This document shows positions 8,460 to 16,193 of a stretch of DNA of 64,000 nucleotides, piece by piece. The notes beneath the pieces were generated by a model. The model saw only the letters and a list, made by a program, of their open reading frames with translations, ran no database searches and was not told where the DNA came from. Position numbers and translations under genes: made by a program. The stretch lies in the NCBI RefSeq assembly GCF_988243305.1, contig NZ_OZ547136.1; one strand, given 5' to 3'. Each line of letters begins with the position of its first letter. Position 1 is the first letter of the stretch.

Positions 8460-9113
8460 CTTAAGAAGTCCGTCGGTCAGGGGGAGCATGAACTCTCCAT
8501 CCTCACCGGAGTTGAGCTGGTTGTCAAACGTGGCGAGACCATCGCACTGGTGGGCGAGTCGGGATCGGGTAAGTCAACCTTGCTGGCGATCCTCGCCGGG
8601 CTGGATGACGGCAGCAGTGGCGAAGTGAGTCTGGTGGGACAACCGCTACATAATATGGACGAAGAAGCGCGGGCAAAGTTGCGCGCGAAGCACGTCGGCT
8701 TTGTTTTTCAGTCATTTATGTTAATTCCTACCCTTAACGCGCTGGAAAACGTCGAGCTTCCGGCGCTGCTGCGCGGTGAGAGTAGCGCGGAAAGTCGTAA
8801 CGGAGCGAAAGCGTTGCTCGAACAGTTAGGGCTGGGTAAACGTCTTGATCATCTTCCGGCACAGCTTTCCGGCGGCGAACAGCAACGAGTGGCGCTGGCG
8901 CGAGCTTTTAATGGTCGACCTGATGTGCTGTTTGCCGACGAACCCACCGGCAACCTTGACCGCCAGACGGGCGATAAAATTGCCGACCTGCTGTTTTCCC
9001 TCAACCGTGAACATGGCACCACGTTGATTATGGTGACCCACGACCTGCAACTGGCGGCACGCTGCGACCGCTGCTTACGGCTGATGAACGGGCAATTGCA
9101 GGAGGAAGCATGA
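8427..9113 (+). CDS. ybbA: ABC transporter ATP-binding protein YbbA
   Basis: Walker A GESGSGKST, signature LSGGEQQR. Confidence 0.9.
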   Translation: MPAENIVEVHHLKKSVGQGEHELSILTGVELVVKRGETIALVGESGSGKSTLLAILAGLDDGSSGEVSLVGQPLHNMDEEARAKLRAKHVGFVFQSFMLIPTLNALENVELPALLRGESSAESRNGAKALLEQLGLGKRLDHLPAQLSGGEQQRVALARAFNGRPDVLFADEPTGNLDRQTGDKIADLLFSLNREHGTTLIMVTHDLQLAARCDRCLRLMNGQLQEEA

Positions 9114-11524
9114 TTGCACGTTGGTTCTGGCGCGAATGGCGTTCGCCGTCGCTATTAATTGTCTGGCTGGCGCTAAGCCTGGCGGTGGCCTGCGTGCTGG
9201 CGCTGGGCAATATCAGCGATCGCATGGAGAAGGGCTTAAGCCAACAAAGCCGGGAGTTTATGGCGGGCGATCGGGCGTTGCGCAGTTCGCGCGAAGTGCC
9301 GCAAGCGTGGCTGGAGGAAGCGCAAAAGCGCGGCCTGAAAGTCGGCAAGCAGCTGACTTTCGCCACCATGACATTTGCAGGCGACACACCGCAGCTGGCG
9401 AACGTCAAAGCGGTGGATGATATCTACCCGATGTATGGCGATCTGCAAACTAATCCCCCTGGCCTGAAACCGCAGGCGGGCAGCGTATTGCTGGCCCCAC
9501 GCCTGATGGCACTGCTTAACCTGAAAACAGGCGACACCATCGACGTGGGCGATGCCACCTTGCGGATTGCCGGAGAAGTGATTCAGGAACCGGATTCCGG
9601 TTTTAACCCCTTCCAGATGGCTCCGCGTCTGATGATGAATCTGGCGGATGTCGATAAAACCGGAGCCGTGCAGCCGGGGAGTCGGGTCACCTGGCGCTAT
9701 AAATTCGGCGGCAACGAGAACCAGCTCGACAGCTATGAGAAATGGTTGTTACCTCAGCTTAAACCCGAACAACGCTGGTACGGTCTGGAACAGGACGAAG
9801 GCGCGCTGGGGCGCTCGATGGAACGCTCGCAACAGTTCCTGCTGCTTTCGGCGCTTCTGACCTTGCTGCTGGCAGTGGCAGCGGTGGCGGTGGCGATGAA
9901 TCATTACTGTCGCAGTCGCTACGATCTGGTGGCGATCCTCAAAACGCTGGGGGCAGGGCGAGCGCAACTGCGTAAGCTAATCGTCGGTCAGTGGTTGATG
10001 GTGCTGGCGCTTTCAGCCGTTACCGGCGGGGCGATAGGCCTGTTGTTCGAAAACGTGTTGATGGTGCTGCTCAAGCCCGTTCTGCCTGCTGCACTACCGC
10101 CAGCCAGCCTCTGGCCGTGGCTGTGGGCGCTGGGCACCATGACAGTCATCTCGCTGCTGGTGGGGCTACGACCGTACCGCTTGTTGCTGGCAACGCAGCC
10201 TTTACGCGTATTGCGTAATGATGTGGTCGCGAACGTCTGGCCGCTGAAGTTTTATCTGCCGATTGTCAGTGTGGTGGTTGTGCTGCTGCTCGCCGGATTA
10301 ATGGGTGGCAGTATGCTGCTCTGGGCGGTGCTGGCGGGCGCGGTAGTGCTGGCTTTGCTGTGCGGTGTGCTGGGCTGGATGCTGCTGAATGTACTTCGCC
10401 GCATGACGCTGAAATCGCTACCTCTGCGCCTGGCGGTTAGCCGCCTGTTACGTCAGCCGTGGTCAACGTTAAGCCAGCTTTCGGCATTTTCGCTCTCCTT
10501 TATGCTGCTGGCGCTATTGCTGGTATTGCGTGGCGATCTGCTCGACCGCTGGCAACAGCAGCTACCGCCAGAAAGCCCGAACTACTTTTTAATCAACATC
10601 GCCACAGAACAGGTTACGCCGCTAAAAACGTTCCTCGCGGAACATCAGATAGTCCCGGAATCATTTTATCCGGTGGTGCGGGCGCGACTGACGGCGATTA
10701 ACGACAAGCCGACAGAAGGCAATGAAGATGAGGCGCTTAACCGCGAACTCAATCTTACCTGGCAAAATACGCGGCCCGATCATAATCCGATTGTCGCCGG
10801 TAACTGGCCGCCAAAAGCCGATGAAGTGTCGATGGAAGAGGGGCTGGCGAAACGCTTAAACGTTGCCCTCGGCGATACCGTGACTTTTATGGGCGATACC
10901 CAGGAGTTCCGCGCTAAAGTGACCAGCCTGCGCAAAGTGGACTGGGAAAGTCTGCGGCCTAATTTCTATTTTATTTTCCCGGAAGGGGCATTAGACGGGC
11001 AACCGCAGAGCAGGCTTACCAGTTTCCGCTGGGAGAATGGCAACGGCATGTTGACGCAACTCAACCGCCAGTTCCCGACCATTAGCCTGTTAGACATTGG
11101 CGCGATTTTAAAACAGGTCGGCCAGGTGCTGGAGCAGGTAAGTCGGGCGCTGGAGGTGATGGTGGTGCTGGTCACCGCCTGCGGTATGTTGCTGTTGCTG
11201 GCACAGGTGCAGGTGGGAATGCGTCAGCGCCATCAGGAGCTGGTGGTGTGGCGCACACTCGGTGCGGGGAAAAAACTGCTGCGCACCACGTTGTGGTGTG
11301 AGTTCGCCATGCTCGGGTTTGTTTCTGGCCTGGTGGCCGCAATTGGTGCGGAAACGGCGCTGGCAGTGTTGCAGGCGAAAGTGTTTGATTTCCCGTGGGA
11401 GCCAGACTGGCGATTGTGGATTGTGCTGCCGTGCAGCGGTGCACTGCTGCTGTCGCTTTTCGGCGGCTGGCTGGGCGCGCGGCTGGTTAAGGGTAAGGCG
11501 CTGTTCAGGCAGTTTGCGGGGTGA
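9110..11524 (+). CDS. ybbP: FtsX-like ABC transporter permease YbbP
   Basis: 804-aa polytopic membrane ORF, stop-start overlap with ybbA. Confidence 0.9.
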   Translation: MIARWFWREWRSPSLLIVWLALSLAVACVLALGNISDRMEKGLSQQSREFMAGDRALRSSREVPQAWLEEAQKRGLKVGKQLTFATMTFAGDTPQLANVKAVDDIYPMYGDLQTNPPGLKPQAGSVLLAPRLMALLNLKTGDTIDVGDATLRIAGEVIQEPDSGFNPFQMAPRLMMNLADVDKTGAVQPGSRVTWRYKFGGNENQLDSYEKWLLPQLKPEQRWYGLEQDEGALGRSMERSQQFLLLSALLTLLLAVAAVAVAMNHYCRSRYDLVAILKTLGAGRAQLRKLIVGQWLMVLALSAVTGGAIGLLFENVLMVLLKPVLPAALPPASLWPWLWALGTMTVISLLVGLRPYRLLLATQPLRVLRNDVVANVWPLKFYLPIVSVVVVLLLAGLMGGSMLLWAVLAGAVVLALLCGVLGWMLLNVLRRMTLKSLPLRLAVSRLLRQPWSTLSQLSAFSLSFMLLALLLVLRGDLLDRWQQQLPPESPNYFLINIATEQVTPLKTFLAEHQIVPESFYPVVRARLTAINDKPTEGNEDEALNRELNLTWQNTRPDHNPIVAGNWPPKADEVSMEEGLAKRLNVALGDTVTFMGDTQEFRAKVTSLRKVDWESLRPNFYFIFPEGALDGQPQSRLTSFRWENGNGMLTQLNRQFPTISLLDIGAILKQVGQVLEQVSRALEVMVVLVTACGMLLLLAQVQVGMRQRHQELVVWRTLGAGKKLLRTTLWCEFAMLGFVSGLVAAIGAETALAVLQAKVFDFPWEPDWRLWIVLPCSGALLLSLFGGWLGARLVKGKALFRQFAG

Positions 11525-11531
11525 TGTGATA

Positions 11532-11566
11532 AAGCCGTTTATTTCTACCTGGTAGATAAACGGCTT
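11532..11566 (+). terminator. hairpin downstream of ybbP (AAGCCGTTTAT...ATAAACGGCTT), left edge of the AT-rich island
   Basis: Inverted repeat read directly; weak T tract. Confidence 0.4.
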
Positions 11567-11692
11567 CATTATTAGTGCATCACGTAATTAAAAAATTGTT
11601 ATGCCCAAACATATAATTAATATACATTGCCAAATGAGTTGTTTATTAAGTTTATATTATATAATTAAAATCTATGGAATGGGTATAATCAT

Positions 11693-13696
11693 ATGGGTGA
11701 CATTATATATTTACGCATTACAGGGGAGCAACAAGGGGATATTTCTGCAGGATGCGGGACGCAAGCCTCTGTCGGGAATCGGTATCAACAGGGACATGAG
11801 GATGAAATATTTGTTTTTAGTTTTCATGGAGGAGTAAGTAACACAGGATTTGGCATTAATCATCAAACGATACAATTTTGTAAAATTCTCGATAAAAGCT
11901 CACCGCTGCTGATGAATTGCATTAATAATAACGAACGATGCCGTTTTGAGTTTTATTTTTATCGTATTAATAAATATGGAAAATGGGAAAGGTATTATTA
12001 TATTGAAGTCCGTGGTGCCACGTTAACTCAGAATCAGATTATAATAAAAGAAAATGAACTTGACTATCAATATATAACAATACACTACGAATATATCTAC
12101 TGTAAGCATCTTACAGCCAATACAGAATTTAGTTATTTACTCACACCTGAAAATTATAATCGCCTTTTCCCACCGACGCTCTTACCTGTTGAGGAAAAAC
12201 CAGAAATACCGCCTGAACGAGAAATTATCCTCACCATTGGTGTATTCTTTGATGGCACAGGAAACAATTTAACCAATACGAATTTACGTATGAGTTTTTT
12301 CCAACCAGAAACCTATGGTCTGGATGTCCAGGATTTGGCCTCGTTTAATAAACAATGTATGAGCAAGCAGGGTAAAACGGGATCCGGAGTACAGAGCTAT
12401 TTGAATTACTATACGAATATTCATTGGTTGAATGAGTTGTATCATAAAGATTCAGAAATAAATGCGGGGTCAGTAAAAATTCAACGTGAAATTTATATTG
12501 AAGGAATAGGGACTGAAAATAATAAAGCAGACTCTCTGATAGGAATGGGGTTAGGAAATAATGATACAGGGGTAATTGCCAAAACTGACCGTGCGATATC
12601 ACTGCTCCGTGAAAAACTGACGGAGATTGTTATTTCTTTAAAAGAGAATAAATTAGTAATTAAGTGTCTACAGTTTGACGTATTTGGCTTTAGTCGTGGG
12701 GCAGCAGCCGCACGGCACTTTACTAATCGCGTATTTGAGTGTGATCCCGTACTGATTAAAACCATTACGACGGCATTTCAGTCAGTTGAATATTTAGGTA
12801 AACCTTCCGGGGAAGTGCAATTTTTAGGTATTTTTGACACAGTTGCAGCCATCGGAGGGCTGATGGATGGTTTTGACCCTCATGATGGTAATAACTTTCC
12901 GGTAAAAGTGAAGTTACCGCCAGGTGTGGCCAAACATGTATTCCAGCTCACAGCAATGAACGAATGTCGCTATAACTTTTGCCTCAACAGCATAAAGGAA
13001 AGCTGGCCAGAATTAAGTTTCCCTGGATCTCATGCTGATATTGGTGGCGGCTATGACCCACTGGAAGATGAGTACCTGTTTTTAAGTCGCCCGGCGATTG
13101 CAACGGTACTGGGAAATGTGCCGGTGGAAGCGACAAGCGCTTACCAAAAAGCAGCACAGCAGGCAGAGTTATTGTGGCGCTATTCGACGCTGGCTCCGAT
13201 TCTGCCTTCTGGTGTCCTAAAAATTGAATCCAATATTGATGAAATAGCGTCGCCTGACCACTTAGGTAATGTGAGAAAACGGGTCGCTGCAGCGGTGACA
13301 TTTCGCAGAACGATCACCAATGACTGGTCAAAGATTGCGTTAAGAGTAATGTATGAAGTCGCTAAAGAGGCAGGGGTAGTATTTGATGCCATTTCTGTTG
13401 CTGATAAGGAATTAAAAGTTCCCAGTCATTTAAAGGTAATATGTGAAAAAGCAATTTCTCAGGGTAAAGCCGTTCTCTTGTGTACAGCGCCGATACCTTT
13501 TTCTGATGATGAGCTTAAAACCATTGGAAAATATATACACTGCTCTTCCAACTGGAATACCGTCGATTATCGATTAAAAAATAAGGTGTCTGCTGAAGTA
13601 TCAGCGTTTAAGACGTTTAGTTTTGTTAATCGGCCGGATGAAAATTGGACCAGAACTATATACGATATGCAAGGGAATAAACAAAATGGAATTTAA
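11693..13696 (+). CDS. Hcp-domain / DUF2235 (Tle1-like phospholipase) fusion protein, putative T6SS-delivered effector
   Basis: 667-aa ORF. Residues 1-~150 align with Hcp (IYLRITGEQQGDISAGCG...GHEDE...SPLLMNCI); FFDGTGN at residues 185-191; GFSRG (GxSxG) with Ser334; FDTVAAIG and HADIGGGY motifs; AT-rich relative to flanks. Confidence 0.8.
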   Translation: MGDIIYLRITGEQQGDISAGCGTQASVGNRYQQGHEDEIFVFSFHGGVSNTGFGINHQTIQFCKILDKSSPLLMNCINNNERCRFEFYFYRINKYGKWERYYYIEVRGATLTQNQIIIKENELDYQYITIHYEYIYCKHLTANTEFSYLLTPENYNRLFPPTLLPVEEKPEIPPEREIILTIGVFFDGTGNNLTNTNLRMSFFQPETYGLDVQDLASFNKQCMSKQGKTGSGVQSYLNYYTNIHWLNELYHKDSEINAGSVKIQREIYIEGIGTENNKADSLIGMGLGNNDTGVIAKTDRAISLLREKLTEIVISLKENKLVIKCLQFDVFGFSRGAAAARHFTNRVFECDPVLIKTITTAFQSVEYLGKPSGEVQFLGIFDTVAAIGGLMDGFDPHDGNNFPVKVKLPPGVAKHVFQLTAMNECRYNFCLNSIKESWPELSFPGSHADIGGGYDPLEDEYLFLSRPAIATVLGNVPVEATSAYQKAAQQAELLWRYSTLAPILPSGVLKIESNIDEIASPDHLGNVRKRVAAAVTFRRTITNDWSKIALRVMYEVAKEAGVVFDAISVADKELKVPSHLKVICEKAISQGKAVLLCTAPIPFSDDELKTIGKYIHCSSNWNTVDYRLKNKVSAEVSAFKTFSFVNRPDENWTRTIYDMQGNKQNGI

Positions 13697-14345
13697 TATA
13701 AAATTACTGTTTGTTATTACGTCTATGGTTCTTAACTTTAACGCAGCAGCGAAAGAAAAAATATCGTTGCTTGCACCCTATGATGAGTGGTATTTCAATT
13801 TTTTCTACCCTGATTCCCTACCAGCAAAAGTTACCTATGTGGAATTATTAGATACCGATGGCATCTATTATCAGTTCAGAACGCTGGCCAGTACTAATGC
13901 CAGTCCAGGAAGTGTTGGACAATGGAGCGAGAAAGTATCAGGGATGTCGTCAGTTTTTAATAAAGCCAAAAACCCACCAATGTCTATCCATTTTTGCTGG
14001 GATTCAGTGATTGATAAAAAAGTGTATGAAACCTGGATAACGCTGGCGGGAGACGTCTGGAAATTGATGCTCACACCTTATTCACCACCAGGCGATGGCA
14101 GTGAAAAATATTATCTACAGTATCTGTTAATCGGACTGGCTCCGGAAGGAAAAGTACGGGTATGGCTTGATAAACGTGACAAACCCAATATTCGCCTGAC
14201 GGATAAGCAGATTCTGATAGAAACGTTTTCAGGTGAAAAAATGGAAATGTGTAAAGGAATTTCCCGGCATGATTTTTCTCTTGGAGACGATGAATATGTT
14301 CTTGAGTTTATCAAAGATAAAAAATATCCCTATGGTAACTGGTAA
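13686..14345 (+). CDS. putative periplasmic immunity protein, copy 1 (219 aa, signal peptide)
   Basis: Start overlaps effector stop by 11 bp; cleavable signal peptide without lipobox; paralogue of next gene. Confidence 0.6.
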   Translation: MEFNIKLLFVITSMVLNFNAAAKEKISLLAPYDEWYFNFFYPDSLPAKVTYVELLDTDGIYYQFRTLASTNASPGSVGQWSEKVSGMSSVFNKAKNPPMSIHFCWDSVIDKKVYETWITLAGDVWKLMLTPYSPPGDGSEKYYLQYLLIGLAPEGKVRVWLDKRDKPNIRLTDKQILIETFSGEKMEMCKGISRHDFSLGDDEYVLEFIKDKKYPYGNW

Positions 14346-14351
14346 GTAACA

Positions 14352-15020
14352 ATGAAAATAATAGCTAAAATAATTTATAGATTAACCATTGCGTTAATGA
14401 TAGCCGGATCAGTCCAGACAGCAGCGAAAGAAAAAATATCGTTGCTTGCACCCTATGATGAGTGGTATTTCCTTTTTTTCTACCCTAATGCGCTACCGGC
14501 ACGAGTTACCTATGTAGAACTATTGGACACTGATGGTATCTATTATCAGTTCAGAACGCTGGATGCTACCGCTCCGAGTTCCACAACTATTGATCAATGG
14601 AGAGATAATCTTCGGGTTGGGGTGTTATCATTCAATAAAGCTAAAAATCCCCCTATGTCTATCCATTTCTGCTGGGATTCAGTGATTGATAAAAAAGTGT
14701 ATGAAACCTGGATCACGCTGGCGGGAAAAGTCTGGAAATTGATGCTAACACCTTATTCACCACCAGGTGGTGGCAGTGAAAAGTATTATCTGCGGTATCT
14801 GTTAATCGGGCTGGCTCCGGAAGGGAAAATAGGAGTGTGGCTGGAGAAACCTGATAAACCCAATATTCGCCTGACCGATAAGCAGATTCTGATAGAAACG
14901 GTTTCAGGTGAAAAAATGGAAATGTGTAAAGGCCGAAGTGTCTATAAAAATGGGTATTCTTACCCGGAAAGTACAAAAAACTTTATCAAAGATAAAAAAT
15001 ATCCCTATGGCAACTGGTAG
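14352..15020 (+). CDS. putative periplasmic immunity protein, copy 2 (222 aa, signal peptide)
   Basis: Tandem paralogue of 13686-14345 with long identical peptide blocks (KEKISLLAPYDEWYF; KAKNPPMSIHFCWDSVIDKKVYETWITLAG) and divergent middle and C-terminus. Confidence 0.6.
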   Translation: MKIIAKIIYRLTIALMIAGSVQTAAKEKISLLAPYDEWYFLFFYPNALPARVTYVELLDTDGIYYQFRTLDATAPSSTTIDQWRDNLRVGVLSFNKAKNPPMSIHFCWDSVIDKKVYETWITLAGKVWKLMLTPYSPPGGGSEKYYLRYLLIGLAPEGKIGVWLEKPDKPNIRLTDKQILIETVSGEKMEMCKGRSVYKNGYSYPESTKNFIKDKKYPYGNW

Positions 15021-15071
15021 TTAACCAGTTGCACAATTTCTTAAAGAGGCACGGAAAAGCATTTTTGTGGG

Positions 15072-16193
<1,122 letters not shown>

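Follow-up and report, generated by a model that had tools for sequence, protein, structure and literature searches.

A consensus -10 hexamer directly ahead of the start codon of an Hcp-ET2-type effector gene in Escherichia coli is most likely a chance A/T word

Introduction

Hcp-ET2 is a type VI secretion system (T6SS) effector that has the activity of a Tle1 phospholipase (Ma et al. 2017, according to the summaries in PMC6730261 and PMC6099711), and both T6SS-dependent delivery and phospholipase-mediated bacterial killing have been reported for Hcp-ET2 (A31K_02346) of the enterotoxigenic E. coli strain PE321 (PMC6730261). Here we analyze the start region of a gene that encodes an effector of this known type, an Hcp domain fused to a Tle1-like lipase, which is already annotated in hundreds of genomes. 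The gene is located in a 64,000-nucleotide (nt) stretch of contig NZ_OZ547136.1 (NCBI RefSeq assembly GCF_988243305.1), hereinafter the window, and all coordinates are positions in this window unless another locus is named. At issue is a perfect -10-like hexamer, TATAAT, immediately ahead of the start codon. A sequence-only reading of the window had noted this hexamer 3 bp before the annotated ATG, along with the lack of a convincing Shine-Dalgarno (SD) sequence, and had offered three alternatives: the hexamer is coincidental and the real promoter lies further upstream, the transcript has a very short leader, or translation begins elsewhere, so that the N-terminus of the Hcp domain would be uncertain.

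Several facts about bacterial promoters are pertinent to this choice. E. coli RNA polymerase most often initiates 7 bp downstream of the -10 element and seldom does so more than 1 bp before or more than 2 bp after this mode (PMC5730371). In AT-rich DNA, A/T tracts at -17 to -23 activate otherwise cryptic -10 elements (PMC7229825). It is well described that -10 hexamers arise by chance in AT-rich DNA of acquired origin. The explanation that we consider highly probable combines two statements, namely, that ATG 11693 is the genuine start of an Hcp-ET2-type gene and that TATAAT is a chance hexamer in the A/T spacer between the SD-like element and this codon.

Results

The start codon of the effector gene

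The hexamer is indeed present, at 11684-11689 on the plus strand, followed by CAT (11690-11692) and ATG (11693-11695); positions 11678-11702 read GAATGGGTATAATCATATGGGTGAC. The ATG opens an open reading frame (ORF) of 667 codons that ends at 13696. The reading frame is limited upstream by a TAA codon (coordinates of this and other features are given in Table 1); none of the eight codons between this stop and 11693 is ATG, GTG or TTG, and the next in-frame start after ATG 11693 is Met74, the use of which would cost the Hcp domain about half of its length. The RefSeq annotation employs the same ATG. Among 107 full-length homologues with 45-95% identity (from Salmonella, Enterobacter, Kluyvera, Atlantibacter, Lelliottia, Cedecea and others), 105 start co-linearly, with the motif M-[G/S]-x-x-[I/V/T]-Y-[L/V]; this is the N-terminal alignment that the sequence-only reading had suggested. 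In 8 of the 10 loci that were read as DNA, an in-frame stop is located 3-27 nt upstream of the start. The solved Hcp structures keep the same register: in 6a2v, residue 3 aligns with residue 3 of the query, and in 5mxn, residue 5 aligns with query residue 6. Judged from sequence, the annotated ATG 11693 is the genuine start and the Hcp N-terminus is as annotated, because the stop at 11666, the co-linear homologues, the Hcp structures and RefSeq all point to it. Translation from another codon, with a wrongly annotated Hcp N-terminus, would fit the presence of only a weak SD and is extremely unlikely, given the stop at -27, after which no start codon intervenes before ATG 11693, the loss of about half of the Hcp domain with Met74, and the co-linearity of homologues and Hcp structures from residues 1-6. 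The doubt that had been raised about the N-terminus can thus be set aside.

No GGAGG-type SD core precedes ATG 11693, in agreement with the sequence-only reading; within 25 nt of the ATG, it is UGGAAUGGG that pairs best with the 16S 3' end (-4.4 kcal/mol), with a gap of 9 nt to the start codon. When compared with 49 RefSeq-annotated genes from the same 50-kb neighbourhood of the closest genome (median, -5.4 kcal/mol), the effector SD ranks 20th weakest, that is, a weak SD of this kind is ordinary. In the sequence type 131 (ST131)-type allele, GAAATGGG replaces GGAATGGG, and the SD-like pairing is weakened to -3.7 kcal/mol. The AAUGG core of this element, at -14 to -10, is kept in homologues of 59-100% identity.

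Additional features of the initiation region were considered. TATAAT can pair with ATTATA at 11702-11707 in the folding of 11663-11722; a structured translational element at 11663-11722 was rejected (z -0.97; 36 of 200 shuffles fold as well). The Rfam scan of 11400-11900 at a permissive E-value produced no RNA family match and hence no known leader or riboswitch. An ORF of 78 codons in the +1 frame (11601-11837, plus strand) overlaps the effector start; as a gene, this 78-amino-acid (aa) candidate was dismissed, because AT-rich DNA yields such an ORF mechanically and no evidence speaks for it. In the same frame, GUG 11697, which is position 8 after the TATAAT hexamer, opens 46 codons.

Composition and conservation of the hexamer

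The 123-nt spacer at 11570-11692 has a GC content of 22% and contains three copies of TATAAT, at 11612, 11660 and 11684. In 5000 dinucleotide-preserving shuffles of this spacer, the mean TATAAT count was 0.85; at least one copy was present in 61% of the shuffles, and a copy ending at most 12 nt from the ATG in 9.7%. A single TATAAT near the ATG is in no excess over chance, and the copy at 11684 is not special because a spacer with 22% GC yields such hexamers by composition.

The upstream regions of ten loci from nine lineages were compared. Both E. coli alleles retain TGGG-TATAAT-CAT-ATG. The homologues with 68%, 61% and 59% identity read AAATGG-CAAATATAT-ATG, AAATGG-TAAATATAT-ATG and AAATGG-AATAAATAT-ATG, respectively; TATAAT is missing from all three, which retain the AAUGG core and a 9-nt spacer made up almost entirely of A and T. 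The hexamer is absent from homologues of 45-68% identity, and the more distant homologues display clearer SDs (AGGAA, AAGGA, GGAG) at similar distances. Across these loci, the hexamer is specific to E. coli. Because the homologues keep AAUGG and the A/T spacer rather than TATAAT, the hexamer at 11684 is one of many A/T words that this spacer can take.

Promoter potential and start-site geometry

The location of the hexamer relative to the start codon argues against a leaderless or short-leader mRNA. Counted from the end of the hexamer (11689), the usual transcription starts at positions 6-9 fall on 11695-11698, with the A of the ATG at position 4; the predicted starts are past this A and, therefore, a transcript from the 11684 hexamer would lack the AUG. 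A leaderless or nearly leaderless effector mRNA, beginning at the A of ATG 11693, would be in line only with the closeness of a perfect -10 hexamer to the ATG and with the weak SD. Nevertheless, such an mRNA is hardly credible because the A is at position 4 compared with the modal start at 7 (PMC5730371), the hexamer is missing in homologues that keep the same start, and the conserved upstream AAUGG implies that a leader is present. The very short leader proposed in the sequence-only reading is disfavoured on the same geometry.

As a promoter, the hexamer lacks partners. It matches the -10 consensus at 6 of 6 positions, the best -35 match is 2 of 6 (ATAATT), and positions -15/-14 are GG instead of TG, so that an extended -10 would be without the T of TG. 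Of the attributes expected of a sigma-70 promoter, the site shows neither a -35 element at 16-18 bp or a TGn extension nor a start that would give a transcript with the start codon; it is not among the sites reported by the promoter scan. These features also bear on the idea of an active, cryptic "happenstance" promoter at the hexamer, of a kind common in horizontally acquired AT-rich DNA, that would fire mainly when H-NS silencing is lifted. An RNA from such a promoter, starting at about 11696, would be non-productive and without the AUG, and the bound polymerase might interfere with an upstream promoter; this idea is compatible with ATG 11693 as the true start. It draws on the perfect TATAAT, the G at -14 and the segment from -23 to -17 (TATGGAA, 5/7 A/T, and 6/7 in the ST131-type allele), along with the activation of cryptic -10 elements by A/T tracts (PMC7229825) and the widespread H-NS-suppressed initiation in foreign genes (PMC3923964). 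Given that the A/T tract is broken by GG within it, with GGG at -15 to -13, that the -35 match is poor and that the hexamer is not kept outside E. coli, we consider an active promoter here unlikely.

Another conjecture, which we regard as very unlikely, is that TATAAT at 11684 serves as a sigma-70-dependent promoter-proximal pause element or as an H-NS-masked promoter of an AUG-less RNA. Phage lambda PR' typifies sigma-70-dependent promoter-proximal pausing. A pause would need a transcription start at about 11665-11672, which places the hexamer at about +13 to +25; polymerase would then be held at the start codon, and translation of the effector could be tied to transcription or the toxic gene could be gated. 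A masked promoter, if real, would yield an AUG-less RNA opening the overlapping +1-frame ORF from GUG 11697.

To return to the chance hexamer, the spacer contains other promoter-like sites. The candidate that scores best, TTAAAA-18-TATAAT, has a nominal start at about 11624 and would give a leader of about 69 nt (promoter scan and own scoring). The hexamers TATATT (11653) and TATAAT (11660) have nominal starts at 11665-11672 and would give leaders of 21-28 nt; in this region, TTTATATT is kept in the five closest homologues. TTGCCA (11627-11632) was rejected as a -35 element for the conserved TATATT at 11653: the spacer would be 20 bp, and the ST131-type allele has TTACTA.

In E. coli strain 21367, an IS1 element (locus L004, 3286-4016; equivalent to 11677/11678 of the window) interrupts the DNA 15 nt ahead of the ATG of hcp-ET2. 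It cuts the gene off from all upstream promoter-like sites and leaves only TGGG-TATAAT-CAT-ATG, so that this strain serves as a natural experiment on the capacity of the proximal 15 nt.

Source of the effector transcript

The effector could also be without a promoter of its own and be transcribed by read-through from ybbA-ybbP, in which case all the TATAAT copies would be irrelevant. The orientation of the effector is the same as that of ybbP, and the hairpin that follows ybbP is U-poor in its tail and is not called as an intrinsic terminator. Conversely, this hairpin is strong (Table 1), homologous modules in other genera are located behind unrelated, in some cases divergent, genes, which requires a promoter belonging to the module, and in Salmonella houtenae another gene separates ybbP from the effector; on balance, read-through is improbable. 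The effector would thus need its own promoter because of the strong hairpin after ybbP and the presence of the modules at unrelated sites elsewhere.

Under the scenario with a genuine ATG 11693 and a chance hexamer, transcription would start in the AT-rich 120-nt spacer, upstream of 11680 and downstream of the ybbP-distal hairpin, either from TTAAAA-18-TATAAT or from the TATATT/TATAAT pair, giving a leader of about 20-70 nt. Translation would then be initiated conventionally, at the weak SD UGGAAUGGG, within an A/U-rich, weakly structured region. Silencing of the locus by H-NS under many conditions is probable because of the AT-rich composition of the acquired DNA and the known behaviour of such DNA (PMC3923964, PMC7229825). 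The hexamer at 11684 most likely has no function for the effector gene. That it is coincidental, as the sequence-only reading had allowed, is backed by the composition statistics, the poor -35 and TG matches, the start-site geometry and the loss in homologues. Of the three alternatives in that reading, the one with the real promoter further upstream is supported, with a start position that we infer.

Several points weigh against this scenario. Three copies of TATAAT in 123 nt are mildly above the shuffled expectation (3.7% of the shuffles reach at least three). The two E. coli alleles are only 2.7% apart, so that the hexamer they share is uninformative on conservation, either way. The promoter scan found one site compared with 1.9 expected in shuffles, which is not significant by itself, and the upstream promoter candidates are consensus matches alone. 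A literature search for mapped starts (differential RNA sequencing [dRNA-seq] or 5' rapid amplification of cDNA ends [5' RACE]) in ST131 or related carriers yielded nothing usable. Finally, cryptic -10 elements in AT-rich acquired DNA are known to fire (PMC7229825, PMC3923964), and non-productive initiation from the 11684 hexamer might still occur.

The effector and its putative immunity genes

The Hcp domain (PF05638, E 1.3e-12, profile positions 1-128/129) spans residues 6-138 of the effector (nt 11708-12106). The Tle1-like/DUF2235 lipase domain (PF09994, E 2.2e-14), of the alpha/beta-hydrolase type, is C-terminal and contains the motifs FFDGTGN at residue 185 and GxSxG (the nucleophile motif), in the form GFSRG, at residues 332-336 (nt 12686-12700). 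Matches to Hcp proteins in PDB have E-values from 8e-16 to 7e-11 (171-aa query). The names assigned by RefSeq to the same 667-aa fusion differ between loci (L001 and L003 versus L002), being either "type VI secretion system tube protein TssD" or "Hcp family type VI secretion system effector"; the TssD name hides the 500-residue lipase extension.

Two DUF2931 genes follow. The start of the first one overlaps the effector stop by 11 nt, and its ATG is preceded by AAGGGAA; on account of this overlap and the preceding AAGGGAA, we infer translational coupling to the effector. The product of this gene is presumed to be a periplasmic immunity protein, and that of the second gene, an immunity paralogue. 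Read from ATG 14352, the second gene encodes a normal signal peptide, MKIIAKIIYRLTIALMIAGSVQTAA, followed by KEK. In the closest genome, RefSeq places the start at the equivalent of 14397 (locus L001, 8998-9621), which removes the signal peptide and has an SD pairing of 0.0 kcal/mol; this start is probably mis-called because the ST131-type annotation uses the longer form.

The island and its distribution

The effector and DUF2931 genes comprise the cargo of an AT-rich island, with a GC content of 32-48% compared with about 55% in the flanks, inserted between the core genes ybbP and mnmH (selU) (Table 1). None of 200 shuffles folds as well as the stem-loop directly after ybbP, the tail of which is U-poor, and the terminator scan did not call it; the stem-loop is likely to be a terminator or an insulator. 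By homology, it belongs to the island and not to the core genome because the empty-site homology ends near 11526.

The island is present in 573 of 5426 complete E. coli genomes (about 10%). Nearly all carriers have one allele, 97.3% identical over 11534-11830, which occurs in ST131 strains such as JJ1886; a single genome, Z1323HEC0462, shows no difference over these 297 bases. In E. coli, the ybbP-mnmH site is found in three states: empty with a repetitive extragenic palindromic (REP)-like sequence (clone D i2), occupied by rhsD (K-12-like), or carrying the hcp-ET2 module with 2-3 DUF2931 genes; the rhsD and hcp-ET2 cargoes are both T6SS-linked polymorphic toxins.

The pairing of the effector with DUF2931 recurs in 8 homologous loci, and the ninth (L005) ends just after the effector. 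These Hcp-ET2 and DUF2931 modules (L005-L013), with 1 to 3 DUF2931 copies each, are orphan islands that occupy a different chromosomal site in most of the lineages examined. The neighbours include kdpA, the katE/cedA region, parC, an inositol-phosphatase gene (Pfam Inositol_P), the glycyl-tRNA synthetase beta-subunit gene, a gamma-glutamyltranspeptidase gene and a BOF-domain gene. As in E. coli, the interval between ybbP and selU holds the module of Salmonella houtenae.

Table 1 Features of the effector start region, the island and its flanks (window coordinates)
Feature	Coordinates	Strand	Evidence or remark
ybbP, core gene, left flank	9110..11524	+	Pfam FtsX (FtsX-type ABC permease); ybbP in RefSeq relatives
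Strong stem-loop directly after ybbP stop	11526..11572	+	Minimum free energy -19.5 kcal/mol, z -3.9
AT-rich island, ~3.6 kb	11527..15089	.	Composition profile; comparison with empty and rhsD-occupied sites
Best sigma-70 promoter-like site (candidate)	11588..11617	+	TTAAAA, 18 nt, TATAAT; 10/12 matches
-10-like hexamers TATATT (11653) and TATAAT (11660)	11653..11665	+	Each after an A/T tract at -23..-17
In-frame TAA limiting the reading frame	11666..11668	+	27 nt upstream of the ATG
Weak SD-like element UGGAAUGGG	11675..11683	+	16S 3'-end pairing -4.4 kcal/mol
TATAAT hexamer under study	11684..11689	+	Inside the A/T-only spacer from SD-like element to ATG; not conserved in homologues
hcp-ET2-type effector gene, 667 aa	11693..13696	+	Pfam, motifs, PDB Hcp matches, homologues
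First DUF2931 gene, 219 aa, signal peptide	13686..14345	+	PF11153 at 3e-27; RefSeq start
Second DUF2931 gene, 222 aa, signal peptide	14352..15020	+	PF11153 at 1.3e-26
mnmH (selU), core gene, right flank	15072..16178	-	Pfam and RefSeq relatives

Discussion

For studies of the structure or secretion of Hcp-ET2 proteins, the gene model as it stands is dependable. The hexamer calls for caution in the annotation of AT-rich acquired islands, where perfect -10 hexamers are expected by composition alone; such a hexamer should be taken for a promoter only when a fitting partner element lies upstream and the spacing to the start codon would work.

Among the known systems, the hexamer resembles the cryptic -10 elements of H-NS-silenced DNA (PMC7229825, PMC3923964) in that it is a consensus hexamer born of composition, in an island of 22-35% GC, with several copies close together; it differs in that the A/T tract at -23 to -17 is interrupted by GG. 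Leaderless mRNAs also have a -10 hexamer near the start codon and no strong SD, but in the present case 3 nt separate the hexamer from the AUG, compared with the ~6 nt needed, and the predicted start comes after the AUG.

With free-standing Hcp/TssD proteins (3he1 Hcp3, 6a2v, 5mxn), the effector aligns over the first ~110-120 residues in the same N-terminal register, and it differs from these proteins in its C-terminal extension of ~500 residues. The closest relative is Hcp-ET2, to which the effector is likened by architecture as summarised in reviews: an N-terminal Hcp domain (PF05638), a Tle1-like/DUF2235 domain at the C-terminus (PF09994) that contains GFSRG, putative immunity genes downstream and a host among E. 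coli and other Enterobacteriaceae. The present copy differs from Hcp-ET2 in being an orphan island between ybbP and mnmH.

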